Of a stretch of DNA of 64,000 bases, positions 28,763 to 43,117 are shown piece by piece. The DNA is from an uncultured Chloroflexia bacterium (lineage in GTDB: Bacteria; Chloroflexota; Limnocylindria; QHBO01). Within the stretch, counting starts at the first letter, position 1. Each line of letters starts with the position of its first letter. The notes beneath the pieces were generated by a model. The model did not search any database and had not been told where the DNA came from. It saw only the letters and a list, made by a program, of their open reading frames with translations. The DNA lies in NCBI GenBank assembly GCA_963806695.1, contig CAWDYT010000002.1, forward strand, positions 3,968-67,967, read 5' to 3'. A program made the translations under genes and the position numbers.

Positions 28763-28919
28763 GCGCTATGGCACAATGCGGAACGAGTTATCCGCTCTGT
28801 TTGAGCGTGAGCTTGCGCCCGTAGCTCAGTGGATCAGAGCAGCTGACTTCGGACTATCCCGGCCGATGCGGTGTAGCCCGAGCGTGGGAGGGCGAGCGTC
28901 GAGCGTCGAGTTATCTGCT
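28763..28919 (+). repeat. Junction J1: tRNA upstream flank + tRNA-Arg 5' half (28815-28853) + conserved arm
   Basis: 39-nt exact match to 43118-43156, then ctatcccggccgatgcggtgtagcccgagcg...gagttatctgct. Confidence 0.95.
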
Positions 28920-29024
28920 GTCTCTGTTGGCGAGAGGTGCAGGCTGGCGGGAGCCTACAGCCGGCACGCCTCGGCGCCGATCCGTTCGCCACGGGATCCC
29001 GCCCTGATTCGCGCCGGATCGGCG

Positions 29025-29264
29025 ATGGTCCCCGACGTCGGCCGCTTCTCGTCCACGCACCATGACTGGTACCGCGCCACGCTGACCAGGCTGTTCGACC
29101 TGCTGGCGCAGGGCACGATCAAGCCCGTCGTGGCCGAGCGGCTGCCGCTCGCCGAGGCGCGCCGGGCACACGAGCTGCTCGAGGCCGGTGGCATCGGCGG
29201 GGAGATCGTCCTCGTCACCGAGGGAGGATCGGTGCTTCGGAATAGCGGCGGCGACTCCACATAG
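29025..29264 (+). pseudogene. 3' fragment of a zinc-type alcohol dehydrogenase / quinone oxidoreductase
   Basis: LFDLLAQGTIKPVVAERLPLAEARRAHELLEAGGIGGEIVLV (MDR C-terminus) with no N-terminus. Confidence 0.7.
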
Positions 29265-29447
29265 CGAAGCCCCGTCGACGTGACATCGAACGCCTGGCGG
29301 GGCCGCAAACCAGCCTGGAGGAGCGGCACTTGCATGCCGTCCGCTCCGGACCGCACCGCTCCCGGTCCCGCCGGAATTCGAGATTCGCGATTCGCTAATC
29401 TCCTGATCGACCTATCGATTGGAATCGGCTTCAGAAGTGCGAGGCAT

Positions 29448-30083
29448 ATGAAGCTCCTCGTCCTTGGCGCAACCGGCGACATTGGCTCGGCGGTCGTGCG
29501 CGCTGCGCTCGCGAACGGCCACGAAGTAGTCGCGTTCGTCCGCTCGCCCGACAAGCTCGGCGAGCTGCGCGACGCCGTCCGCGTCGTCCAGGGCGATCTG
29601 GCCGATGCCGAGGCCATATCTGCGGCCGTGGCAGGACATCACGCGGTCATCAGCGCCGTTGGCTCAAGTCCCGACAAGTCCCAGCTGGACGTTCCCGCGA
29701 ACGCCACGCGACACGTGGTCGCCGCGATGAAGGCCGCCGGTGTCCGGCGGCTGGTCGGGCTAGCCGGCGGAGCCGTCGACGTGCCCGGCGAGAGGAAACC
29801 GATGAGTGGTCGGATCACGACGGCTTTCGTGCGGCTGATGGCCCGGAACGTCGTGGAGGCGAAGCAACGCGAGTTCGAAGTAGTTCGCGCCAGCGGCCTG
29901 GACTGGACAATGGTTCGTCCTCCTCGCGTCGTCCCAGGCGAGCCAACTGGAAGGGTGGATATCGGCGACAAGCTCCACGGATTCCAAGTCGCGAGCGGCG
30001 ATGTCGGTCAGGCAATGGTCTCGTTAGCGACCGGGAATGATTGGCTGCACATGGCGCCCTACGTTTCGGAGCGACGCAGCTAG
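29448..30083 (+). CDS. NAD(P)H-binding oxidoreductase (flavin reductase / BLVRB-like)
   Basis: MKLLVLGATGDIG, LDWTMVRPP. Confidence 0.88.
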   Translation: MKLLVLGATGDIGSAVVRAALANGHEVVAFVRSPDKLGELRDAVRVVQGDLADAEAISAAVAGHHAVISAVGSSPDKSQLDVPANATRHVVAAMKAAGVRRLVGLAGGAVDVPGERKPMSGRITTAFVRLMARNVVEAKQREFEVVRASGLDWTMVRPPRVVPGEPTGRVDIGDKLHGFQVASGDVGQAMVSLATGNDWLHMAPYVSERRS

Positions 30084-30170
30084 ACGCGAAGCGGCTTGGC
30101 CGAACGCCGGCTTGTAGGCCTCGGTGAGAGACAGGGGCCCACAAGGCGGGCGCCAGGGGTGGCACAACGC

Positions 30171-31447
30171 TTACCGCGGACTGGGTGCACTCAGCAGCCG
30201 GATCAGCTCGTAGACGGCGACAGGCTGCGACTTCCCTTTCAGGCCAGGCGACCCCAGCGGTCGAACGACCGCCTGCTCCCGAATGTGGTCGTAGGTGCTG
30301 GCACCGATTACGACGCTCCCTTCGGCGGCGTAGGTTTGCAGGCGCGCCGCTACGTTGGTCGTGTCTCCAATGGCGGCGAAGTTGCGCATTTCGGCACCGC
30401 CGATATTGCCCACCAGTGCTGGGCCGCTGTTGAGGCCGACCCGAAAGTGAGGGCGCGTGCCCCGTCGGGCAGCTCACCCACGGCTTGCTGCATCGCCAGG
30501 GCCGCGCGTGCTGCCCGCAAGGCGTGGTCCGGCTGAGGGTGGGGAGCGTTGAATATGGCCATGAGAGCGTCGCCCATGAACTGCACCACCGTGCCACCCT
30601 CCGTGAAGACGATCGGTACCACCACCCCGAACGCAGCATTCAGCATCGCCACAACCTCGGTGGGCGCTCGGCGTTCGGCGAAGGCCGTATATCCGCGCAG
30701 GTCGGCGAACAGGACCGTCACGTCGACCTCCTCGCCGCCCAGCGCCGCGCGTCGCGGATCCTCGATCAATGCGCTCGCCACCGCCGGCGATAGGTACCGG
30801 TGGAGCAGCTGGTCGACCTGATCACGGAGCGCGCTTACGAGCCGGCCCTGTGCGAAGGCAGCACGTTGCGACAGTTCCAGCGACATCCGCCCACGCAAGC
30901 GGCCACCACCGCGAGGGCGAGGATGAGGACCTGCAGGGGCAATTGCGACGCCAGCCCAAGCGCCAGGGCGAAGACCACGAACAGCACGCAATAGGCACTG
31001 CCCATCACGACCGCGCCGGTGAAGGGGTGCCGCGTGATCGAGAAGCCGAACACGGCGGTGACCATGACGCCGGGTAGCGCGTACACGGCGAAGGTGCTCG
31101 GTGACAGCCGCTAACGCGAGCACCGCGATGCCGGCCGCGAGCTGTTGCCCCATGCCAATCGCGTCGCGCCGGCGCTGGGTCGTCGCCCACCGGCTCACGC
31201 CTGCACTTGCGAACAGCAAGATGATCATGAGGCCCGAGATCAGCCAGGTTTGGCCCGGCGCAACGTCGAGCACCGGAGGCCCGATGAGGGCCACCAGCAC
31301 CCAGGCTCCGACAGCGACGAGACTTGTGGTGCGGAGGCGCCGCACCCCCTCCGCGTGATCCGCGTGCTGGTACGACTCCTCCAGATCCCGGTCCAAGAAG
31401 CGCAGCGTCCAACGGTCGCGCCGGTCCCAGCCAGCGGGAAAGATCAC
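30171..31447 (-). CDS. Membrane class III adenylate/guanylate cyclase (frameshifts)
   Basis: TVLFADLRGYT, QFMGDALMAIF, GDTTNVAARLQ, LKGKSQPVAVY; N-terminal TMs. Confidence 0.85.
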
Positions 31448-31650
31448 GGCGTCAGTCTATGGCGTCACCCCTGTTCTTAGGGACTCAGGAGGCAGCGCAC
31501 GTAACCCACCTCCCGATCGCATTCACGGTGGGTTCCCCCGGTCCTTCGGGCCGTGCTAAGCGCCCTCGCGTGGATCGACGCCTCGCTCCGGCGCTGGAAA
31601 TCGGCATGGCGTGACGTGCGGCACTTTCCCAAACGGCCGGCCCCTGGTGA

Positions 31651-31730
31651 GCGCTGTGGCACACCGGCGAGCGGCTCTGTTGCTCCGCTCGAGCGTGAAC
31701 CGGCGCCGGTAGCTCAGTGGATCAGAGCAG
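31651..31730 (+). repeat. Junction J2: degenerate copy truncated before the anticodon loop, with no arm
   Basis: gcgctgtggcaca...ccgctcgagcgtgaacc-ggcgccggtagctcagtggatcagagcag, then unrelated sequence. Confidence 0.8.
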
Positions 31731-31915
31731 GTGCGCCCAAGAGTCCCGTCGCAGCTTGAGCAACATCCGGACACACCGGCCTCTTGCGATCGGTCTCTGC
31801 CCATCGCGCGCTGCGATCGATGCCAGAGCACCGACACTTGTCGCAGTTTCGAGTCGCCTCTGAGCCGCAAACAGAGAACCACTCAGACTTCGGCATTGCC
31901 GCTACAGTGCGCGCC

Positions 31916-33028
31916 GTGGCGTACGAAACGGTTGATTGTGTCGTGGTCGGTGCTGGAGTCGTCGGCCTGGCGGTGGCGCGGGCGCTGGCGATGGCCGGGC
32001 GGGAGGTGATCGTACTTGAAGCCCACGAGACCATCGGCACCGAGACGTCATCCCGCAACAGCGAAATAGTGCACGCCGGCATCTACTACCCCAAGGCCAG
32101 CAACATGGCGCGGCTCTGCGTTCAGGGTCGGCGCATGCTGTATCGGTACTGCGACGACCGCGGCGTGCCCTACAACAAGTGCGGCAAGCTGATCGTCGCT
32201 ACGACAGAGCCCGAATCCGAGACGCTCGTCTCGATCAAAGCACGCGCCGAGGCGAATGGCGTGGAGGGCATGCGCCTCCTCGATGCCGCCGACGCGACGG
32301 CGATCGAGCCGGAGCTCAGTTGCACGGGCGCCTTGCTATCGCCGGCCACCGGCATCGTCGACAGCCATCGCCTCATGGTAGCGATGCGCACCGACGCCGA
32401 GGACGCCGGCACGATCATCGCCTTTCACAGCCCGATGGAGCGCGGTCGCGTCGCCGACGGGGGCCTCGAGATCGACGTCGGCGGCGGGGCTCCGATCACT
32501 TTGCGCGCGCGCCTGCTGGTGAACAGCGCAGGGCTGCGTGCGCCCGAGCTGGCACGCCGGATCGACGGCGCCATCTACGACACCCTCCCGACGGCCTACT
32601 ACGCCAGGGGCAACTACTTCCGTTTGAGCGGTGCATCGCCCTTCTCGAGGCTGATCTACCCGGTGCCGGTGCCCGGCGGCTTGGGGGTGCACATCACGGT
32701 CGATCTCGGTGGCCAGGCGCGGTTCGGCCCCGACGTCGAATGGATCGACGAGATCGACTACGCCGTCGACCCCTCGCGCGGCGACGGATTCTACGCTGCG
32801 GTGCGCCGGTACTGGCCGGGCCTGAAGGACGGTGCACTGCACCCCGACTTTTCCGGCATCCGGCCGAAGATCGTGCCACCAGGTGCGCCGGCGCAGGACT
32901 TCACCTTCCACGGTCCCAGGAGGCATCACATCCCGGGCCTGATTCATCTCTTCGGCATCGAGTCGCCGGGCCTCACCGCGTCTTTGGCGATCGGCGAGCA
33001 TGTGCTAGCGATGACACGCGCGTCATGA
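31916..33028 (+). CDS. L-2-hydroxyglutarate oxidase family FAD-dependent oxidoreductase
   Basis: [50 protein letters not shown]. Confidence 0.88.
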
Positions 33029-33207
33029 CGGGCCGCGGCCGGCAGCGGTCCCGGCCTCGTCGATGACCGCTGGCCGTGCGGGACCGGTTGGCCATGGGCC
33101 CGTCGGCGCTGGGCGATCGATGGTCGGGTTTCCGGTACAGCTCATCAATCGGTCTCAATCGGTACCATGCGTCCGATTGGCCTACTGGCATGGTCCGGGG
33201 GCGCCCC

Positions 33208-33364
33208 GCGTTGTCGCACAATGCCGTACGGGTTATCCGCTCTGTTGAGCGTGAATTCGCGCCCGTGGCTCAGTGGATCAAAGCAGCTGACTTCGGACTA
33301 TATCGGCGCGATGCGCTGTAGCCCGAGCGTGGGCGGGGGAGCGTAGAGCGTCGAGTTATCCGCT
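33208..33364 (+). repeat. Junction J3 (tRNA half 33259-33297, 2 substitutions)
   Basis: gcgcccgtggctcagtggatcaaagcagctgacttcgga + ctatatcggcgcgatgcgctgtagcccgagcgtgggcgggggagcgtagagcgtcgagttatccgct. Confidence 0.93.
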
Positions 33365-33446
33365 CCGTTCCATCCGCCTATCAGTCGTTGCCTGGTTTCC
33401 CGCGGTGAAAGGCCATGAGTAGAACCTCTCGCCCACGGGCGATTAA

Positions 33447-34642
33447 TCACGACCCGGGCCCCAGCGGTTGCCATTCGCCCCGGGCGGATCCTGGGACGAG
33501 AAGCTGCCGGTCAGAGCCGTCGAGCACTGATGCTCCAGAGCCCCGTCGGGTCCCCGTTGACGTCGCGTGTCGCAAAGAGAATCCGGTCACCGTCGGGCGA
33601 GTACGCGAGCGGCCTGATTCCCGGCTCCGCCGCAATCGTCGCCTCGATTCCACTGGAAATGTCCAGCACGCGAAGCTCGGCGGCCGGCGAGCCACCGTTA
33701 GCGCTCCACGTGTAGGCAAGTCGATCGCCCAGGGGTGACCAAACGAGGTTGTGCCAGCCCCCGACTACGTCGGACCCATCGTCGCTCCGGTCAGTCAGGA
33801 CCTGAAGCTCCGTGCCATCGGCGTCGGCGATCACAAGGGAGGTGGTCCGCACATAGGGCTCGTAGGATTCGGAATCGGTGATGTAGGCGACACGCGTTCC
33901 GTCGGGCGAATACCCGAGATGGGGATGTTGGAATTGGGAAGGCCAATATCGGGGGTCGCCCATCGCGAGACGCCGTGGTCGTTGACCGTCGATCGGCATC
34001 AGGCAACCACCGGCGGCCACGACGGACCGCCCATCGAGCGACCAGATCGGGTCGTGATCGCCAAACGCCACGCAGCCACCCGGCGGAGAGAGCACTGCCT
34101 GGAGGTCGCCGTCGATCCCGTAGATCCCAACCGTCTCGAACAGCTCGATCCAGGTGGCCACCCGGGTGGAGTCGGGCGACCACGAGGCGAACCAGCCATC
34201 GCCCGGGAATGACGCGACCGGGTGGCCGTCCGCGTCGCTTATGCACACGCCTTCTCCGGATCGATAGGCAAGGTACCGACCGTCGGGTGACCACATCGGT
34301 CCTTCGCCGCCGAAGCCGGAGCACTCGCCGTCCTCGCCGTCGGCGATCCGGACCGGGTTCTGGCCGTCCGCGTCGGCGAGGTAGCCGTGCTCGTCGAGTT
34401 CGTAGGCTAGCTGGAACTGTGAGCTGTCCGGCGCTCCGGCCAGGAGGGCCGCTGCCCCGCCGGCGCCGATCAGCGCGGCAACCGCCAGGACCCGGAGGGG
34501 CCATCGGCGGCGGCGGCGGTCGAGTTCCGGCCGCGCGCTGCGCCGCAGGCGACTCGGCCCAGGATGGATCCGGGCCCAGCTCGTGATCGAGCGTCTGTCG
34601 CAAGGCGTCCCGCAGCTGGCGTTCGAGTTCGTCGGTCTGCAT
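33447..34642 (-). CDS. Putative anti-sigma factor with TolB/PD40-like repeats (frameshifts)
   Basis: MQTDELERQLRDAL N-terminus, TM, WSPDG/YSPDG repeats; directly downstream of an ECF sigma. Confidence 0.7.
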
Positions 34643-34645
34643 GGC

Positions 34646-35162
34646 TCAGCCTCCCGTCGTGGCCGCGGCGCCCGGTTCGGGTTCCAGGGCATCCTTGAGT
34701 CGGTCGAGGGCACGAGAGAGCATCGCGCCGACGTTGGTCGACGTGGTGTTGAGGATCTGCGCGATCGTCGTGTAGTCGTAGTCGTGGTAGTAGCGGAGGA
34801 TCACGGCGGCGCGCTGACGCGCCGGCAACACGTCGAGCGCCTGGAGGAGGGCCATGCGCGCGACGGTGATCACCCGCCGCGTCGGGCGCCGTCCAGGGCG
34901 ACAGGTCACCTACCGGCGAGGTCGTGCGACGGCGGCGCAGCGCCGCCAGCGCCTGGTTGACGACGATGCGGTGCAGCCACGCCGTCGAGGGCGCATCTCC
35001 TCGGTAGCGACCGCGGTGGCGGTAGGCTGCGACGTAGGCGTCCTGAGTGACATCGGCAGCGAGGGCCGGATCGCGGACGACGCCCAGCGCCGTTCGATAG
35101 GCGACGTCGTAGGTCCGCTCGTAGAAGGCGCCGAAGTCCGCGATCTCGAGGCGGAATGCCAT
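34646..35162 (-). CDS. ECF RNA polymerase sigma factor (frameshift)
   Basis: FGAFYERTY, DVTQDAY, WLHRIVVN; LPARQRAAVILRYYHD...IAQIL. Confidence 0.85.
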
Positions 35163-35448
35163 CGATTCGTTCCTCCAGCCGCCGAGGTCAAGGCCTTCGG
35201 TCATTACCCTAGAGATGCACCGAGGGCAGAATTCCTTACGCCTCGCGGCATCTTGGCCGAAAGATTGCGAGGAAGCGACCCGCCGCAACCCTCGGCAACG
35301 GATCCGCGCGAGCCCGGCCACCTCCGCCTCGGAGCTCGCAGGGAGGATCGGTGCGTCGGCAAAGTGGGCAGCTTCAGGACTCGGCTCGCCTTGCTCGACG
35401 CCGCTGCTGCGACGGCTGATTAGACAGATCCTCGAGACCAGTCCGAAG

Positions 35449-35604
35449 GCTGTGGCACAATGCGACGAGGAATTATCCGCTCTGTTTGAGCGTGAATCGT
35501 GCGCCCGTAGCTCAGCGGATCAGAGCAGCTGACTTCGGACTATCCCGGCCGATGCGCTGTAGCCCGAGCGTGGATGGGGAGCGTATCGCGTCGAGTTATC
35601 CGCT
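35449..35604 (+). repeat. Junction J4 (tRNA half 35501-35539, 1 substitution)
   Basis: Same three-part structure as J1. Confidence 0.95.
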
Positions 35605-35790
35605 CTCTTCCGGAGGTGCCTCCGCCCACCCTGGTCACCTTGGAGCGAACTCCTGCCCTGCTCACTCTCCGGCGGTGCGTCATCTGGTTGTCCAAGGACG
35701 AATCGGCTGTTTGACCGATGAGTTGCGCATCTGGCTGCAGTCTTCTGGATAGCGCCACCCCATGAGGGCGGCGAGGCAGAGGAGGCCCAG

Positions 35791-36036
35791 ATGGCCACGC
35801 AACGACGACTCGCGCGGGTGTTCGGAGTGACCGGTGACGTCCCCGCGACGCGCACGGTTCCGGACCTGGACGCGGCCCTCGGTCTCGTCCGCCGGCTGGG
35901 CGGGGCGATCGTGTCGGAGACGCGGACGGCGCCCGGCATCGGATCGTGGGCGTTCGTCTGCGACAGCGACGGCAGCGAGCTTGTGCTGTGGCAGAGCGCG
36001 CTCTCGGTCGCCCACCGCGGCGCTAACCCGGCCTAG
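35791..36036 (+). CDS. Small VOC/glyoxalase-like protein
   Basis: GAGG RBS; VPDLDAALGLVRRLGGAIV...PGIGSWAFVCDSDGSELVLWQ. Confidence 0.65.
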   Translation: MATQRRLARVFGVTGDVPATRTVPDLDAALGLVRRLGGAIVSETRTAPGIGSWAFVCDSDGSELVLWQSALSVAHRGANPA

Positions 36037-36224
36037 GCGGGGCCGAACCACGTGGTCAGCGCGTCAGCGAGACTCACCTGACGCTGAGCCGGTGATCCAG
36101 TCCCGCACCAGCTCGACGTAAGTCTCCGGCGCCTCCACTCCATGAGCCCGTCGACGAGGCGGCGTGGGTCGGTCAGCGTGCCGGTGCGAGCGCTCGGGCG
36201 CGGTGGCACCGCGATGGGCCGGCG

Positions 36225-36752
36225 CTACGGCCCGAATTCGATGCCCCCGCGAAGAACGTCGTAAGGCGAGCCCATCCTGAGGCGGTTCTGCCACATGCGG
36301 TCCAGGTTGGTTAGGCAGTCCGGTGTCTTGAGTGCGGGCTCCCCAGGCGCAATCTCGACAGTCCCTTTGTCGGGGGACCCGCGCTTGATAACGACCCATG
36401 CGGGATCGCCCACCTCCATGAACTCGCCCCCAACGGTGGTTGAACCGCCGATGATGACGATGCCGTCATCGGTCTCCCAAGCGCACTGCAGATCGACGGC
36501 GAAAGTGTTGGATCCTGACCAATTGGGGCCTACCGTCATGCGCCCCATCACGCTGGATCCCACTCGACTCGCTTCGAATTCGACCGGACCAAAGTCGTGT
36601 TCGACGAACTCGCCCCGGGCGATCAGCACCGGGCTCGGCGCTGGGATCGCGATGGTCCCGCCGAGCCCGGCCGGGCCGACCGTGAAGATTGCGGCAGCGC
36701 TCCCGATGACGATGAATGCGAGGACGGCGGCTACGCGCAGGTATGGCGTCAT
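36225..36752 (-). CDS. Exported protein, single-domain paralog of the ectodomain of 36875-37957
   Basis: MTPYLRVAAV...SPVLIARGEFVEHDFGPVEFEASRVGS, closely similar to the internal segment of the neighbour. Confidence 0.75.
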   Translation of the reverse strand: MTPYLRVAAVLAFIVIGSAAAIFTVGPAGLGGTIAIPAPSPVLIARGEFVEHDFGPVEFEASRVGSSVMGRMTVGPNWSGSNTFAVDLQCAWETDDGIVIIGGSTTVGGEFMEVGDPAWVVIKRGSPDKGTVEIAPGEPALKTPDCLTNLDRMWQNRLRMGSPYDVLRGGIEFGP

Positions 36753-36874
36753 GGCTGCTGTCCTCCAGGGGCCCGCCCCACGACCGGATCGGCGACGTGA
36801 CTCGACTGGCTCATGCGTTGCCTCCGTGTCTCGGTCATGGCTCGGGCGCGGTCGGCCTCACCGACGGCTCGTCG

Positions 36875-37957
36875 TTACGGACCAAGCTCGATGGTTCCGT
36901 CGACCGGATCGGCGAAATCCACCGGTTCCAGATGCGTGCTGCGCTCCCACATCAACTGCTCGTCGAGAAACTCGACGCATTGGCCGCCTCTGACTCGCCC
37001 GGACGGCCGTGGCCAGACGGACGCCTCCACGGGCGATCCGCGCTCCAGGTAGATCCCGGCCCAGTGGCCCTCTTGCGGGGCCTCCTCGCCCGACCTGTCT
37101 ATCACGACGCCACCGATCATGATCAGTCCATCCCGGGTCTCCCGGACGCACTGCAGATCGACGGTGCCCGTCCACGGCTCGTTCTGCCCTTGGCCCGACA
37201 CGGTCATGTGCCCCGTCACGTCGGAGCCTTCTCGAATCGCCTCGAATTCGACCTCACCGCCGATGGTCGCGAAGTTGCCTCGGGCAACCAGCACCGGGAT
37301 CGGCGGTCCGAACTCGATGCCCCCGTCGAGAACGGCGTAAGGCTCCGAGTCGTCTCCCATGTTCGCCAGGCAGTCCGTTGTCTGGGTCGCGGGCTCGCCA
37401 ATCGGAATCAAGACCATCGCTGCGGAGGGGTTCCCTCGCTTGATGACGACCCATGCAGGGTTGCCGACGTCCACAATCTGGTTCCGGACCGTCACGAAGC
37501 CGCCGATCATGACTCTGCCGTCGTCGGTCTCTCGAACGCACTGGAGTCCGACGGTCACCGGCCCCCATCCTTCCTTCGCGGCTATCGTCATGTATCCCGT
37601 CACGCCGGAGCCCACTCGACTCGCCTCGAATTCGACCCGACCCCAGTCGTGTTCGACGAAGTCGCCTCGGGCGATCAGCACTGGACTCGGCGATGGCGTG
37701 GCGTTCGTTCCGCCGAACCCGGCCGGGCCGAGCGTGAACATTGCGGCGGTGCTACCGATCGCGACGAGCGCGATGACGGCTGCGACGCGCAGGTATGACG
37801 TCATGGATGTGGTCCTCCACGGCCCTCGGAAGTCCCGTTCCTGTGGCGTGCTCCTGGCGGCCAGCAAGACGGCGTCGATCACCTCGGGCGGTGTCGCGTC
37901 CGAGCCGTCGTTCAGCCAACGGTCGACGGCTCGATCGAAGTCACGCTTGTCGTTCAT
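36875..37957 (-). CDS. Putative anti-sigma factor with two tandem extracytoplasmic domains
   Basis: Overlaps the sigma stop; short N-terminus (DRWLNDG...STPQER), TM, two copies of a PVLxARG..VEFEA..LQCVRET..IEFGP domain. Confidence 0.75.
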   Translation of the reverse strand: MNDKRDFDRAVDRWLNDGSDATPPEVIDAVLLAARSTPQERDFRGPWRTTSMTSYLRVAAVIALVAIGSTAAMFTLGPAGFGGTNATPSPSPVLIARGDFVEHDWGRVEFEASRVGSGVTGYMTIAAKEGWGPVTVGLQCVRETDDGRVMIGGFVTVRNQIVDVGNPAWVVIKRGNPSAAMVLIPIGEPATQTTDCLANMGDDSEPYAVLDGGIEFGPPIPVLVARGNFATIGGEVEFEAIREGSDVTGHMTVSGQGQNEPWTGTVDLQCVRETRDGLIMIGGVVIDRSGEEAPQEGHWAGIYLERGSPVEASVWPRPSGRVRGGQCVEFLDEQLMWERSTHLEPVDFADPVDGTIELGP

Positions 37958-38550
37958 GCCGGTCGTCCTTCTCTGAGATCCTGCGTCGCCTGCGCCTGCT
38001 CGAAAGCGGCGCGCAGCGCTCGGGTTGCATAGTGCAGACGAGATCGCGCAGTCCCGTCCGGGATGCCGAGCGTTTCGGCCACCGCCACCAGGGGCAGGCC
38101 CACGTGGTGATGCAGGACGAAGACCGCGCGCTGGTCGAGGGGGAGCCGGCGAAAGGCCTGCTCCAGCTCGTCACGGTCCACAATCTTCTGGATGTCGTCG
38201 GCGTCGCTCGCAACGCTGGAGTGAAGCACACGAATGGTCGATGCCCACCGGCGGTTGCGCGGTGCGTCCGCGTAACAGGCGTGGACAAGGATTCGGAAGG
38301 CCCATGCCTCGAAGCGGTCGGCGTCCCGCAGGTGCGGGAGCTTCCGCCAGATCGTCACCAGGGCGTTCTGCAGCACGTCCTCGGCGAGCGTGGGATCTCG
38401 GAGGATCCGCCTGGCGACACCCAGCAGCGTGTCACTGACCTGGTGCACCAGATCGGCAAACGCTTCCTGGTCGCCGGAGCGGGCTCGCTCCACCACATCT
38501 CTGTCCAAGACACCCTCGGTGCGGTGGTCATTCGACCTCCGTCTACCCAT
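37954..38550 (-). CDS. ECF RNA polymerase sigma factor
   Basis: GDQEAFADLV, EDVLQNAL, FEAWAFRILV, LGIPDGTARSRLHYA. Confidence 0.92.
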   Translation of the reverse strand: MGRRRSNDHRTEGVLDRDVVERARSGDQEAFADLVHQVSDTLLGVARRILRDPTLAEDVLQNALVTIWRKLPHLRDADRFEAWAFRILVHACYADAPRNRRWASTIRVLHSSVASDADDIQKIVDRDELEQAFRRLPLDQRAVFVLHHHVGLPLVAVAETLGIPDGTARSRLHYATRALRAAFEQAQATQDLREGRPA

Positions 38551-38725
38551 GATGAGGGTCGTGATCGGCGAAAACGTTCAGTGCGTCCCAAGATCCTCAG
38601 CGCGCACGCGGAGCGAGCGGTGGCTAGCTGTAGCGGCGGCTGATCGTCCGCCACAGGAACGTTTCGATGGGGCAGGGCCCGCTCGTAGGTTGGACCACTG
38701 GATTCGTCGGCTCGCAGCCAACACC

Positions 38726-38887
38726 GAGCGCTGTGGCACAATGCGACGACGAGTTATCCGCTCTCTTTAAGCGTGAAATCGGCGCCCGTAGCTCAGTGGA
38801 TCAGAGCAGCTGACTTCGGACTATCCCGGCCGATGCGCTGTAGCCCGAGCGTGGGCGGGGGAGCGTAGACGCGTCGAGTTATCCGCT
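38726..38887 (+). repeat. Junction J5 (tRNA half 38782-38820)
   Basis: Exact 39-nt half; flank gagcgctgtggcacaatgcgacgacgagttatccgct closely matches the flank of the intact tRNA. Confidence 0.95.
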
Positions 38888-39049
38888 GTCGCGCGTCCGC
38901 TTTCGCTGCCACTCCGGGCCTGTGAACCCGCAACGGGCCGCTCTGGGAGCGTCGCCAGGCGAAGCGGGAAGGCGGCCGCAGGGGCGGGAGGGCCTCCTGG
39001 CAGGTGCGATCTGAAGCAGTGCCGAAGCACTCGGTCGGAGTCAGCTCGG

Positions 39050-40048
39050 TCACGTGGCGATCCAGGCGTCGATCTCGCTCAGCAGCCCCGTCTTCCGCCC
39101 CTCGGGCAGGAAGCTGGCCGTGACCGAGTTGCGCGCCAACCGGGCCATCACCTCGTCGCTGAAGCCGAACGTCGCCCGCAGGGCCTCGTAGTTCGTGTCC
39201 GCGTAGCCCCCGAAATAGGCCGGGTCGTCGGAGTTGACCGTGACCAGGACGCCCGCCTCGAGGAAGGCCGGCAGCGGATGGTCCGCCAGCGTGTCCACGC
39301 ACCGGAGCCGTACGTTGGACAGCGGACACATGGTCAGCGGGGTCCCGGCGCGCGCCAACCGATCCATCAGGGCCGGGTCATCGATCGCCTGGATGCCGTG
39401 GTCGACCCGCTCGATGTGCAGCAGGTCGAGCGCCTCGGTCACCGATGCGGCCCCGCCCTCCTCGCCCGCGTGAGCGACCCGGTGGAGTCCCAGTTCACCG
39501 GCGCGGGCGTACACGCGTTGGAACTTGGCGGGCGGGTTGCCGACCTCGGCCGAGTCCAGACCGATCCCGATGATCGGCGCACCGGCCTCCTCCAGAGCGG
39601 CCAGCATCGCCAGGGCCTCCTCCTCGGAGCGGTCCCGGTGGAAGCAGGCGATCAGCTCGACGGTCGTGCCGTGGTCGCGTTCGGCGGCGGCGATGCCCGA
39701 CGCCAGCCCGTCCAGGACCCGCTGGAGCGGGATGCCGCGGGCGACGTGGGGCTGCGGGTCGAAGAACGCTTCGACGTGACGTACGCCGCCGGCGGCCGCC
39801 CGGGCGACATAGGCGGTCACCAGGTCGCTGAAGTCCTCCTCGGTCTGCAGCACGGTGAGGTTCGCGTAGAGCAGGTCCAGGAAGCTCTGCAGGTCGGTGA
39901 ACTCGTACCGACCGCGCAGGTCCTCCAGGTCGGCGTAGGGCAGCTCGACCTTGTTGCGGCGGGCCAGTTCCAGCACGGTCTCCGGCTCCAGGGTGCCTTC
40001 GAGATGGAGGTGCAACTCGACCTTGGGAAGGGTGCTCAGATCGCGCAT
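39050..40048 (-). CDS. add: Adenosine/adenine deaminase
   Basis: LPKVELHLHLEGTLE, AHAGEEG, CPLSN, VNSDDPAYFGGY. Confidence 0.9.
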   Translation of the reverse strand: MRDLSTLPKVELHLHLEGTLEPETVLELARRNKVELPYADLEDLRGRYEFTDLQSFLDLLYANLTVLQTEEDFSDLVTAYVARAAAGGVRHVEAFFDPQPHVARGIPLQRVLDGLASGIAAAERDHGTTVELIACFHRDRSEEEALAMLAALEEAGAPIIGIGLDSAEVGNPPAKFQRVYARAGELGLHRVAHAGEEGGAASVTEALDLLHIERVDHGIQAIDDPALMDRLARAGTPLTMCPLSNVRLRCVDTLADHPLPAFLEAGVLVTVNSDDPAYFGGYADTNYEALRATFGFSDEVMARLARNSVTASFLPEGRKTGLLSEIDAWIAT

Positions 40049-40304
40049 CGGGTTCCCTTCTGGACGCTGCCGGTCACGGTGCGGTGACACCGAGGCTACA
40101 TTCGGATATTGCAGTGCGGGCAGATCACGTGGGGGATCGTATCGGCTCCCCACCGTGAACGTCACATGTGTGATAGCGATACACTTGCGGAGAGCGAACG
40201 TTACGACCCTGGGATGGAAGGCGCGCCAGAGGGGCGGGCTGCTCGGGCCAGCGTCATCTCGCAGGGACCAGGTTCCTCACTCGGCGCCTACTTCGTCCAG
40301 AATC

Positions 40305-40439
40305 GACTTTTCCGCTCTCTTTGAGCGCGAATATGCGCCCGTAGCTCAGTGGATCAGAGCAGCTGACTTCGGACTATCCCGGCCGATGCGCTGTAGCCCG
40401 AGCGGGGATGTGGGAGCGAAACGCGTCGAGTTATCTGCT
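40305..40439 (+). repeat. Junction J6 (tRNA half 40335-40373; TGGCACAAT motif absent)
   Basis: gacttttccgctctctttgagcgcga + exact half + arm ending gagttatctgct. Confidence 0.93.
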
Positions 40440-40567
40440 CTCTTCGCAGGTCTTTAGGGTCCGGGCCTCCGACGACGCCGCCACGAAACTCGTGTGCCCG
40501 TGGCTAATTAGCCACACTAGGTTGCCGACGGCCGCCCGTGACCCGGGCGCCCCCGCGATGACGATCC

Positions 40568-41022
40568 TCACCCTGGCTTGACGACCATCAAGACGATGAT
40601 CGTGACGACGATTACGGCGAGGATGATGCCGACCAGGCGAGCGCGAGCGCCGAGCGCAGCGAACTCGGCGGTTCCTGCCCCACTCGCTTCGTACGCCGCG
40701 ATCTGGCGTTTCAGGGTCGGGGAGTAGAAGAAGAAGGCCACCGTGCCCATCACCAGATACAGCCCGATGGCGGCATAGATCCAGAACTGGGTGAACTCCC
40801 ATGGGCCGAGCAGCACCAGCAGGATGCCGACGATGAGAAGGCCGGCGTAGGAGGGATTCGCCACCCGATCGTCCAGGAACTTGATGCCGCGCAATGCAAA
40901 GCCGGTGTTGCTCAGACTCCCGCGTCGCACGCGCCTGCCAGACTCCCGTAGCTGATGTTCACACCGACCGCCACAATCGCGAACAGGATGTGCAGCGTCT
41001 TCAACCAGGGATACCAGTCCAT
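40568..41022 (-). CDS. DUF2269-like membrane protein (frameshift)
   Basis: MDWYPWLKTLHILFAIVAVG ... IIVLMVVKPG. Confidence 0.75.
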
Positions 41023-41189
41023 GTCGCCCTCCTGAGCCCAAGCGTCTTAACCCAACGCCGCTTACGAAGCGTTCGCCACCGTTCACCCACTGCAACGTGG
41101 AGATCCTGGAAGTTCGATGTTGGGGATCACTGCCACCACGCCGCTTGGTCGGGACGGAATCTGTTGACATGCCGGACGTCACCTCGCGT

Positions 41190-42844
41190 TCGGCGAGATA
41201 CTCGTGCACCCGACGGATCACTGTTGAACCCTCACCGACGGCAGCGGCTACGCGCTTCAGTCAGCCACCCCGAACGTCGCCTACCGCGAAGACGCCGGGC
41301 ACACTCGTTTCAAGGGCGGACGGTGGTCGGGCAGCCCCGACTTTCGGCCCTACCGAACGGAGTCGGTCAGGACGTATCCCCGATCGTCGCGCTCGATGTC
41401 GGCCGGCAGCCAACCGGTGCGTGGCGAAGCACCGATCATGATGAAGACGGCCGCGGCGGGGACTGCCTCCGTGTGATTGGCGGCGCCGTCGTGGATGGTC
41501 AGGCTGCGGAGGCGGAAGTCACCGGCCCCCTCGACAACCACGGTGTTCAGGCGGATCGCGATGTTGTCGCGGGCCTCGAGGTCGCGGACCAGGTAGTCGG
41601 ACATCTCGGTCAGCGACGGTCCCCGAACCAATACCGTGACGCGGGCGGCGAACCGGCTGAGATAAAGGGCTGCTTGGCCGGCCGAGTTGGCGCCGCCTAC
41701 CACGTATACGTCCTCGTCAACCATGCCGGGAGCTCCACGCCGGCGCCATAGAAGACGCCGCGGCCGACGAGTGCCTCGAGGCTGTCGATGCCGATGCGCC
41801 GGTAGCTGACGCCCGTTGCCAGGACGATCGCTCGGCTGCGGACTTCGGAGCCGTCATCGAGTACCAGCACGCGAGGATCCGGCTCCACGAGTAGGCCGCT
41901 GTAGCGGCGCGGCCGATGAGAAACCGAGCGCCGAGGATCCAGGCCTGGAGATAGGCCCGGTTGGTCAGCTCGGCGCCACTCAGCCCGCGCGGGAAACCGA
42001 GGTAGTTGCGGATCCGCGAGCTGGTACCGGCCTGACCGCCGAGCGCCTCGTTCTCGAGTACCAGCACCCTGAGGCCCTCGGATGCGCCATAGACGGCTGC
42101 TGCCAGACCGGCTGGGCCCGATCCTACGATGGTGACGTCGAAGACCTCAGAGCCGGGATCCGTATTCACGCCCAGAGCGTCTGCTACGTCCGCTGGAGTT
42201 GGCTTTGACAGCACTCGGCCGTTGAAGAGGACCGCGACCGGTAGAGGGGCCGGGAGCCCGCTCCTCTCCAACAGCCCGCGGCCTTCGTCGCTGTCGGCAT
42301 CGTAGTAGCGGAACGGGACGTTGCTGCGCTGCAGAGCATCTTGCAGCCCGTGGGTGTACGGGTCCCACCGGTCGCCCACGATGCTCACCGCTTCGAACGG
42401 TGGCCGGTGGCTGCGATCCCACTCGTCCAGGAGTTCGGTGACGGCATGGCAGAACTGCTCATCGGCATCGCGCCAAGGGCGGTCGATGTAGGTGTCGATC
42501 TGTCCCAGCGCGGATGCCTTGATGATCGAGTCGGCTGTCGAGCGATCACCCCAGTTGATCAGCAGCGCCCGTTTCGCGTCGCGGTGGATCGAGCTCACCC
42601 GCGCCAGGAGTTCGGTGCCGGTCATGTCGGGCATCGATTGGTTAGCCAGGACCAGCGCGACGTCGGTGCCGTTGAGACGCAGCTCGTCGAGCGTCTTCAA
42701 GGCCTTCTGCGGAGAGGCCGGAGTGAGGACTTCGTAGTCCGCGCCGAACCTGCGCTCCAGGATGGTGCGAAGTCGCGCGCCGGAATCCGCCTCATCGTCC
42801 ACCGCGACGATCGCGGCCGGCTCGGTTGGAGGTTTGCTGCTCAT
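41190..42844 (-). pseudogene. Receiver domain + thioredoxin-reductase-like FAD oxidoreductase (frameshifts and an in-frame TGA)
   Basis: IVAVDDE receiver; GSGPAGLAAAVYGASEGL, GGQAGTSSRIRNYLGFP, GGANSAGQAA, GDVRGG*LKRVAAAVGEG. Confidence 0.75.
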
Positions 42845-42899
42845 GTGGCTCGTATCGCGGCCCGGGGTCGGTGGGTTGCTGCTTCATGATAAGCCCGGC

Positions 42900-43047
42900 A
42901 CCTTCACCGACCGGTGTGCAGAACTGGATCATGCTGCCCGAGCCGTTCTTCGACCCGTTGCGGCAGGAACCGCGATTTCGGAACGTCATGCGGCGACTTG
43001 GGTTGCCGGAATGGACGCCGCCCGCAGGAGGCCTGCCGCATCAGTGA
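42900..43047 (+). pseudogene. 3' fragment resembling the C-terminal tail of TPR-containing proteins
   Basis: EPFFDPLRQEPRFRNVMRRLGLP, ending just before the tRNA flank. Confidence 0.55.
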
Positions 43048-43060
43048 GACCGGGTCATCC

Positions 43061-43117
43061 GAGCGCTGTGGCACAATGCTGGCGACGAGTTATCCGCTCA
43101 GTTTGAGCGTGAAATCG
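43061..43117 (+). promoter_or_regulatory. Conserved tRNA upstream flank with putative extended -10 (TGGCACAAT), GAGTTATCCGCT box and CGCTC/GAGCG palindrome
   Basis: Shared with junctions J1-J6 (degenerate in J2; partial in J6). Confidence 0.6.

Follow-up and report, generated by a model that had tools for sequence, protein, structure and literature searches.

Why should a 12-bp sequence hold its place on both sides of a broken tRNA gene? The locus considered here is a 64,000-nucleotide stretch of DNA from an uncultured Chloroflexia bacterium (hereafter the window), and it raises this question in five places. In each of them a copy of the box lies upstream of the 5' half of a tRNA gene, and a second copy lies at the end of the arm that follows the half. 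The sequence-only reading took these boxes for arm-type integrase or accessory-factor sites of a lambda-like intasome that define the functional limits of attP. That proposal makes claims about anatomy, about conservation and about the protein that reads the boxes, and they do not all fare equally well.

Boxes and tRNA halves in the window

The window has 11 matches to GAGTTATCCGCT when up to 2 mismatches are allowed, and all of them are on the + strand. Shuffled sequences have a mean of 3.13 matches and 0 of 100 shuffles reached 11. The matches form five pairs, four with a spacing of 123 bp and one (at junction J5) with 125 bp. All five pairs of start positions that had been reported earlier were recovered, together with a copy that was absent from the earlier list. 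This eleventh box is unpaired and starts at 43087, 31 nt upstream of tRNA-Arg(TCG). ARAGORN finds this tRNA gene (43118-43194, + strand) and no other in the window. By its prediction, the alignment and the search for half copies it is intact, and it is the target gene at the attR side of the array.

The 5' half of this gene, 39 nt that run through the anticodon loop, is repeated at 28815, 33259, 35501, 38782 and 40335 with 0-2 mismatches, where none are expected by chance. The five displaced halves are all on the + strand and all upstream of the intact gene. When the junctions and the gene are aligned their identity stops after tRNA nt 39, the end of the anticodon loop CTTCGGA. Beyond this point the gene goes on as tRNA, and the junctions instead have a common arm of ~55 nt that closes with the second box. 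On the other side the five junctions and the gene have ~53 nt of upstream sequence in common, which consists of GCGCTGTGGCACAATGC, a spacer, the box and CGCTC-N5-GAGCG. The order within a junction is a promoter/leader with or without a left box, the tRNA 5' half, a conserved arm of ~55 bp and the right box. The alignment also bears out three finer points of the sequence-only reading: the left box overlaps the palindrome, GAGCG(T) is repeated in the arm, and similarity between junctions is lost a few bases past the right box.

All of the junctions are on the + strand. J5 begins with a P arm (38728-38781) that forms the right-hand end of the preceding cassette. Within this arm are GCGCTGTGGCACAATGC (38728-38744), the left box (38751-38762) and a palindrome in degenerate form. 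The displaced half follows (38782-38820, 39 nt, 0 mismatches), and then the P' arm (38821-38887), which is the left end of an adenosine-deaminase cassette. It contains the blocks CTATC, GCGCTGT, CGAGCGTG and AGCG, with the right box (38876-38887) as its terminal element. J1 (28785-28919) has its left box at 28785-28796, the half at 28815-28853, the arm, and the right box at 28908-28919. J3 (33230-33364) has a left box with 1 mismatch (33230-33241), a half with 2 mismatches (33259-33297) and a right box at 33353-33364. The left box of J4 (35470-35604) also has 1 mismatch (35470-35481), and its half and right box are at 35501-35539 and 35593-35604. J6 (40305-40439) has a degenerate left box with 2 mismatches (40305-40316), its half at 40335-40373 and its right box at 40428-40439. 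A sixth junction, J2 (~31649-31733), is degenerate. It retains class-A-like upstream sequence and ~28 nt of the tRNA half, and both the arm and the boxes are absent. The intact tRNA is itself preceded by a class-A P arm (43065-43117, + strand) with GCGCTGTGGCACAATGC, a left-type box at 43087-43098 and the palindrome as CGCTC at 43095-43099 and GAGCG at 43105-43109. The rest of this 2.14-Mb genome, which is 57% complete, has no further junction-like sequence.

Conservation of the junctions

We compared 220 distinct junction-like sites from the Limnocylindria (Chloroflexota). They comprise all copies of the tRNA half in the window, in regions of related genomes, in 54 GTDB stretches and in 80 metagenome loci, where the GTDB and metagenome stretches had been chosen by a 20-mer that spans the half and the arm. 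Records with this sequence belong to Chloroflexota, mostly Candidatus Limnocylindria, apart from a few short contigs with a different binning. The anatomy seen in the window and its conservation can both be observed directly in this set. The right box is found in 193 of the 220 sites and is at +91 to +95 from the tRNA start in 188. The left box is found in 103 (at -29 to -33 in 100). The spacing from left to right box is 121-126 in 88 of the 91 sites that bear both. As expected of homologous junctions, the right box and the spacing are conserved; the left box, however, occurs in only about half of them. The left box is absent from 117 of the 220 junctions, and these retain the half, the arm and the right box. 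It is dispensable for the existence of a junction, and crossover at the boxes themselves is ruled out.

Information profiles resolve the conserved sequence into the blocks CTATC, GCGCTGT, CGAGCGTG, AGCG and CGAGTTATCyGCT with variable spacers between them. The blocks GCGCTGT and GAGCGTG sit between the core and the box. Conservation drops to zero ~6 nt beyond the right box, both in 157 non-redundant junctions and in 194 that were picked with no box requirement. The earlier claim that the boxes define the limits of attP is supported on one side, where the right box is the outer limit of the conserved P' arm, but the left box is no universal left limit, given the sites that lack it.

The left and right boxes are not interchangeable. 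At position 9, 101 of 102 left boxes have C and 147 of 189 right boxes have T. The C in the left boxes means that the CGCTC/GAGCG palindrome is kept, and it is kept in 91 of 102. One can imagine that the left box is simply the native chromosomal promoter of the tRNA. This is ruled out by two congeners in which no junction was found (L053 and L054), whose intact genes are preceded by unrelated sequence with TAnnnT and no box, so the left box was brought by the elements and is not chromosomal. Junctions without a left box have unrelated upstream sequence too. A promoter-like TAnnnT precedes the half by 5-22 nt in 54 of 118 junctions that lack the left box vs 2 of 102 that have it, which fits arms that have to drive the restored tRNA. 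Several of the regions upstream of the half that lack the box (e.g. L040 ~12894 and L146:1951-2205) are the first 20-85 codons of the integrase gene, fused no more than ~10 nt from the half. TACGAT within this coding remnant occupies the place of a -10 element. Deletions seem to have taken the P arm and most of the integrase there, and to have left a promoter for the tRNA.

Boxes at other tRNA genes

Related elements occur at other tRNA genes, and this makes it possible to ask whether the two boxes of an element change together. For elements with both ends we took the longest direct match between 150 nt of P arm and 120 nt of P' arm and compared it with 200 shuffles. In 6 of 7 comparisons this match is 13-17 nt long and is the box. 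It is 13 nt in the window type, a length that 1 of 200 shuffles reach. It is also 13 nt in the Arg-TCT type and in the Thr-GGT type, where 0 of 200 reach it in either case. Three Arg-TCG elements of f3, another family of the class, have matches of 17, 15 and 13 nt (0 of 200 shuffles each). The exception is an integrase-bearing P arm from genome G022. Against the window arm it gave a 9-nt match to GCTGTAGC-type sequence, which 15 of 200 shuffles reach, and the box was not recovered; its box-like copies have 2-3 mismatches.

The P' copy of the box is 51-58 nt past the tRNA half in each element type, and the P-arm copy is at -32 to -143. The f3 P arms have 2-3 direct copies. The box sequence itself differs by element type (CGAGTTATCCGCT, GTTAGTTGCTCAG, ACGTAAGCGGTCT and GAATCAGATGCTCTA). 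It is specific to the type and the same in both arms, so both copies change together and the distance to the crossover is kept. This co-variation is an observation. Together with the fixed positions it favours the sequence-only reading insofar as the boxes are probably functional, position-constrained elements of the attP arms. Two further motifs, GCGYTGTRG and GAGCGTG, are common to all element types and are present in both arms. The element types are related, so part of the shared architecture is common descent.

The box sequences follow a pattern of their own. When each box is aligned without gaps to its own tRNA, the best match is the inverted one in 4 of 4 types, with its start at nt 20-22. 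The matched region comprises the 3' strand of the D stem and the anticodon stem's 5' strand, and it adjoins the crossover on the left. The f3 Arg-TCG box matches its tRNA at 13 of 15 positions (shuffle p <0.0005) and the Thr-GGT box at 11 of 15 (p 0.019). The Arg-TCT box and the window-type box each match at 10 of 15, with p 0.076 and p 0.10, so the window type is weak taken alone. Summed over seven types, the local score of the inverted box against the cognate tRNA is 57, which is above all 1854 derangements, in a test where the boxes were picked by eye, the tRNAs share AGAGC and the two Arg-TCG types are related and not independent. The majority T at position 9 of the right box extends the tRNA match to AGAGCAG. 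Each box thus resembles an inverted copy of nt ~20-36 of its own tRNA, which would be the left half-site of the core.

The candidate integrase

The window cassettes encode no recombinase among their 17 ORFs (Pfam). The only PF00589 matches in the window's genome are C2:209082 and C2:245411, and both are far outside the window. Five well-assembled congeners likewise have only the two Xer-type genes, ~160-200 kb away from the array. The window genome and the best-assembled arrays hold nothing but these two distant genes, so we infer the acting enzyme from relatives.

The first relative is in f3 (L044). There a junction and the intact tRNA-Arg(TCG) flank a 3-kb element whose tyrosine recombinase, 288 aa long, is encoded divergently from the tRNA. 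The C-terminus of this protein looks damaged. Homologues of this recombinase in the window's genus are 38-50% identical to it. We examined 10 of the 12 matches with E below 1e-49, and all 10 are oriented towards the 5' end of a tRNA gene. Their targets are Pro-TGG, Lys-CTT (three places), Arg-TCT, Leu-TAG (two places), Arg-CCG, Thr-GGT and Arg-TCG. The distance from the end of the integrase ORF to the tRNA start is 72-129 nt in nine measured elements, namely eight of the ten places and the f3 element of L044; in L242 it is ~750 nt. Another of the ten places, L239, is from an unpublished genome (G033), lies outside the distance measurement and has no conclusion resting on it. One f3 integrase (L046) is an exception and lies just 3' of the tRNA instead of on its 5' side.

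The second relative is an intact tyrosine recombinase of the Arg-TCG type (G072:C24; L252:11204-12208, - strand). It is 334 aa long, is divergent from tRNA-Arg(TCG) and lies 72 nt upstream of it, and the catalytic motifs are visible in its translation. Its P arm has a box-like GAGTTTTACGCT, an GCGTTGTGGTCAATGC element and the palindrome in the compensated form GTGCTC...GAGCAC. A match at C13:2140-2226 may be the attL of this G072 element. N- or C-terminal remnants of this integrase are seen by tblastn to abut tRNA halves in array loci, among them L146, L020, L048, L037, L078, L082 and L040. The L146 remnant is 82% identical over aa 27-110 and the L020 remnant, broken off by the contig end, is 69% identical. 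The same search finds none in the window. Remnants that abut the halves argue that the arrays are accretions of elements of this integrase family whose integrase genes have been deleted.

The domain content of the G072 integrase is simple. Pfam finds only a SAM-like domain (41-121) and Phage_integrase (144-317), with at most 40 residues before the SAM-like domain. The best NCBIfam models are XerC, XerD and XerA, aligned over aa 41-315 and all below the cut-off, and the nearest solved relative is XerD. The likely integrase of these elements is an Xer-like two-domain tyrosine recombinase that lacks an arm-binding domain.

Two other kinds of gene lie near these elements. A small basic ORF of 85-96 aa that belongs to no Pfam family is common to 5 of 9 integrase-bearing elements (for example L255:1402-1659 on the - strand, and L253:10151-10420 and L249:4305-4571 on the + strand). 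It lies ~400-600 nt past the integrase stop in four elements and ~4.4 kb off in L250, and it may be an accessory or directionality factor. Directly 3' of tRNA-Arg(TCG) there is, in two relatives, a different element (L095:9682-12868 and L245:581-2397) with two convergent tyrosine recombinase genes. Those of L095 are only 27-35% identical to P0001/P0002 and are followed by a 339-aa ORF. Since this element is on the 3' side, tRNA-Arg(TCG) is targeted from both sides by unrelated elements.

What the boxes may do

We argue that the boxes are accessory core-type integrase-binding sites that set the limits of attP, and that the array is an accretion of degenerate elements that replace the 5' half of the tRNA. 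Judged from these comparisons, this explanation has about an even chance of being correct. In the proposed scenario small integrative elements accreted in tandem at tRNA-Arg(TCG). Each would have crossed over within the anticodon loop and supplied a promoter and a tRNA 5' half of its own, so that insertion leaves a whole gene and displaces the older 5' half upstream. After successive insertions each junction would combine the P arm of the left cassette with the P' arm of the right one, and the two would meet at the crossover. The 12-bp boxes would then be the outermost conserved cis-elements of the arms, in direct orientation and ~60 bp to either side of the crossover. They are most likely bound as accessory sites by the elements' own Xer-like two-domain tyrosine recombinase. 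Because each box resembles the inverted left half-site of the core, the same domains would read boxes and core. For an integrase with no separate arm-binding domain the simplest reading is that extra protomers read the boxes as core-type sites. The attP has a poor right core half-site, CTATCCCGG, and bound protomers may help the synaptic complex to assemble on it. The cassettes would later have lost their integrase genes by deletion.

The best-supported reading remains that the boxes are intasome arm sites marking the limits of attP, where the binding is a prediction from sequence. The earlier description does not survive in all its parts, however. "Lambda-like" is a poor name for sites of a candidate integrase family that is Xer-like, with SAM-like core-binding and catalytic domains and no domain for the arms. 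The boxes, too, look more like inverted copies of the left half-site of the core than like a separate arm-type motif. We infer that a protein binds the boxes, which protein it is, and that it has a role in synapsis.

It is worth considering whether some other protein reads the boxes. They could be recombination-arm sites bound by a separate accessory protein, either a directionality factor of the element or a host nucleoid protein, and not by the integrase. An integrase that has no arm-binding domain is in line with this, as is the small basic ORF in 5 of the 9 integrase-bearing elements. The presence of GCGYTGTRG and GAGCGTG in both arms of all element types also speaks for it. However, the small ORF has no Pfam family, and it was not found beside the Arg-TCG integrase of G072 or in the 3-kb f3 element. 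The box sequences follow the cognate tRNA, which is expected of an enzyme that reads the core and not of a general factor. We consider a separate protein unlikely.

A role in transcription or RNA processing is improbable. Under this reading the left box would belong to the promoter/leader of the restored tRNA. The right box would serve as a promoter, a terminator or an RNA-pairing element for read-through from the displaced half. The left box does lie between an TGGCACAAT-like element and the tRNA, and it overlaps a palindrome that is kept in 91 of 102 copies and is compensated in G072. The boxes, as inverted copies of tRNA nt 20-36, could also pair with the half, and the f3 junction folds better than shuffles (z -3.1). 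Yet positions 38650-38950 contain no intrinsic terminator pattern and no sigma-70-type promoter, in a promoter scan that used the sigma-70 consensus only. Half-plus-arm segments (three window junctions on the + strand, J5 on the - strand) fold no better than shuffles, with z of +0.4 to +1.9, and the segment from the left box to the half of J5 has z -0.65. Pairing of the leader with the tRNA body would hinder the folding of the tRNA. Cargo genes run in both directions, and the distance of 51-58 bp from the crossover is constant across element types with differing cargo. The same five folds (z -0.65 to +1.9 against shuffles) reject a folded single-strand model, whether attC-like or RNA, for the window type.

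It is still less probable that the boxes have no present function and were carried along as part of a ~180-bp junction module that homologous recombination or shared descent has recently multiplied, with the likeness of left and right as a relic of an old duplication: cassettes without integrases, the common ancestry of arrays within one genus and decaying junctions such as J2 and the leftmost one in G036 suit this, but conservation is block-wise with variable spacers between the blocks, position 9 differs between left and right boxes, and the architecture and spacing recur at other tRNAs with different box sequences.

The explanation by core-type integrase sites can be taken a step further, to a scenario that we find conceivable but doubtful. 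An Xer-like two-domain recombinase might build a lambda-style higher-order attP with no arm-binding domain, by means of displaced inverted copies of a core half-site ~55-60 bp either side of the crossover. Since the P' arm and the box stay conserved on cassettes that have no integrase, such cassettes could still be excised and captured in trans. The tRNA-Arg locus of the Limnocylindria would then be an integron-like platform with up to 16 junction-bounded cassettes, where the tRNA 5' half and its promoter are swapped at each capture.

Comparison with known systems

A lambda-type attP has arm-type sites, unrelated in sequence to the core-type sites, that are read by a heterobivalent integrase. 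The attP proposed here is similarly long, with sites repeated in each arm at defined distances from the core, and one of its core half-sites is likewise weak. It differs in that the integrase has no N-terminal arm-binding domain and the arm boxes seem to resemble the core half-site instead of a separate motif. In a lambda-type attP, sites for bending or directionality proteins (IHF, Xis) are found between the core and the arm sites; in the junctions this interval contains the conserved blocks GCGCTGT and GAGCGTG. Simple tyrosine recombinases can also read accessory direct repeats, namely DR1/DR2 of the integron attI site (IntI) and DR1/DR2 of the Tn4430 resolution site (TnpI). There, as here, a two-domain recombinase would have extra core-like motifs beside the core as accessory sites. 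Those repeats are one-sided and close to the core, whereas the boxes are on both sides at ~60 bp and the target is a tRNA gene. The array is unlike an integron in other ways. In an integron an intI gene adjoins attI, and the cassettes end in attC sites, which fold into single-strand hairpins. Here no integrase lies beside the array, the half-plus-arm and left-box-to-half segments fold with z -0.65 to +1.9 against shuffles, and the cassettes carry their own regulators and have genes on both strands. Xer-exploiting elements (IMEX, dif modules) recombine at a dif-like XerC/XerD site through the Xer enzymes of the host. By eye the boxes do not resemble the E. coli dif sequence; the host does have Xer-type genes.

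A close likeness is to tRNA islands with a crossover centred on the anticodon. In the part of the Islander survey that treats them, islands with a displaced 5' fragment are rare (159 of 3919), and there are only 4 tandems of three or more, with an own integrase required in each (PMC4383910). The likeness to these islands, as that part describes them, lies in a displaced fragment of the same orientation upstream, a restored gene, a tyrosine integrase and tandem arrays (PMC4383910). The displaced tDNA fragment is of the same orientation and on the correct side in the window, with its five + strand halves upstream of the gene. An integrase in each island is not seen among the 17 ORFs of the window, and it is seen in the relatives L252, L044 and L020. 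The arrays depart from the islands so described in that the window has 5 junctions plus one degenerate and G036 has 16, and that the cassettes are free of integrases.

In the tycheposon model from Prochlorococcus, as outlined in the portion of the preprint used here, islands next to tRNAs grow by repeated integration and are left with partial tRNAs and fragmented integrases (bioRxiv 10.1101/2020.12.28.424599). Those islands and the Limnocylindria arrays are alike, on that outline, in integrases specific for single tRNAs and in cargo of niche genes (bioRxiv 10.1101/2020.12.28.424599). The likeness is one of description, and the arrays differ in that they belong to the phylum Chloroflexota (Ca. 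Limnocylindria), that no replication hallmark genes were seen in them and that the outline used here gives no arm-site anatomy for those islands.

In a narrow literature search, the Xer-like integrase family of the Limnocylindria that replaces the 5' half, the length of integrase-free arrays and the core-like boxes at fixed distance appear to be new. The comparison yields a concrete site map, one that experiments can test, for a seldom encountered way of integrating into tRNA genes, which replaces the 5' half and the promoter, in an uncultured class of soil Chloroflexota. It hints at how a simple Xer-like recombinase could acquire the control of a complex attP, and it would account for the organisation of long integrase-free arrays of signalling, transport and metabolic genes. 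The box rule (an inverted copy of tRNA nt ~20-36, ~55 bp past the crossover) could be used to locate the limits of elements at other tRNA genes.

Cargo and make-up of the arrays

Six cargo cassettes lie between the junctions of the window (28920-43064). By Pfam their 17 ORFs, which are on both strands, include a cyclase-domain protein, a DAO-type FAD oxidoreductase, an adenosine deaminase, a DUF2269 protein, a receiver-FAD protein, a sigma-70 region 2 protein that adjoins a PD40-repeat protein, and unknowns. The junction is genus-wide, and 32 of 36 congeners sampled match the junction query, some by the tRNA part alone. The array of G036 has 16 displaced halves across ~85 kb with the intact gene at its end, and no recombinase or transposase was found by Pfam among the 73 ORFs of this region. 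Scans of 145 ORFs from GTDB loci and of 90 of the 180 ORFs extracted from metagenome loci found no recombinase in the arrays (Pfam), with exceptions only in L074, which has one DDE transposase fragment, and in L095, where the tyrosine recombinases are 3' of the tRNA.

The 20-mer spanning half and arm had 0 matches in viral contigs. A check of public reads gave short Logan contigs only, which covered no more than 24% of the sampled words; joints were few, with 21-33 letters on a side, and lay inside repeats.

Cargo is rich in signalling and regulation across the window (28920-43064), loci L031-L035 and the metagenome loci, with cyclase domains, ECF sigma factors adjacent to PD40-repeat proteins, and two-component systems. 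The adenylate/guanylate cyclase cargo often has AAA_16 and LuxR-type domains, and transporters and hydrolases are also found. At L034 ~1925, L040 ~6115, L041 ~4090 and L052 ~10577 one and the same cassette end is seen, made up of the 3' end of a PEMT-family gene and TAGAAT ahead of the half. It adjoins the tRNA in G021, is internal in G036, and is the leftmost in both G008 and G019. Its differing ranks in four genomes show that cassettes are gained, lost or reshuffled in the arrays. Just downstream of the tRNA in G050, a genome of f3, lies the gene for a protein of 813 aa (L044:12783-15224, - strand). This protein has AEP-TOTE primase and ResIII/DEAD helicase domains and is a member of a TOTE conflict system. 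The adenosine-deaminase cassette of the window is found again beside the intact tRNA in L095, with 94% identity over 1674 nt.
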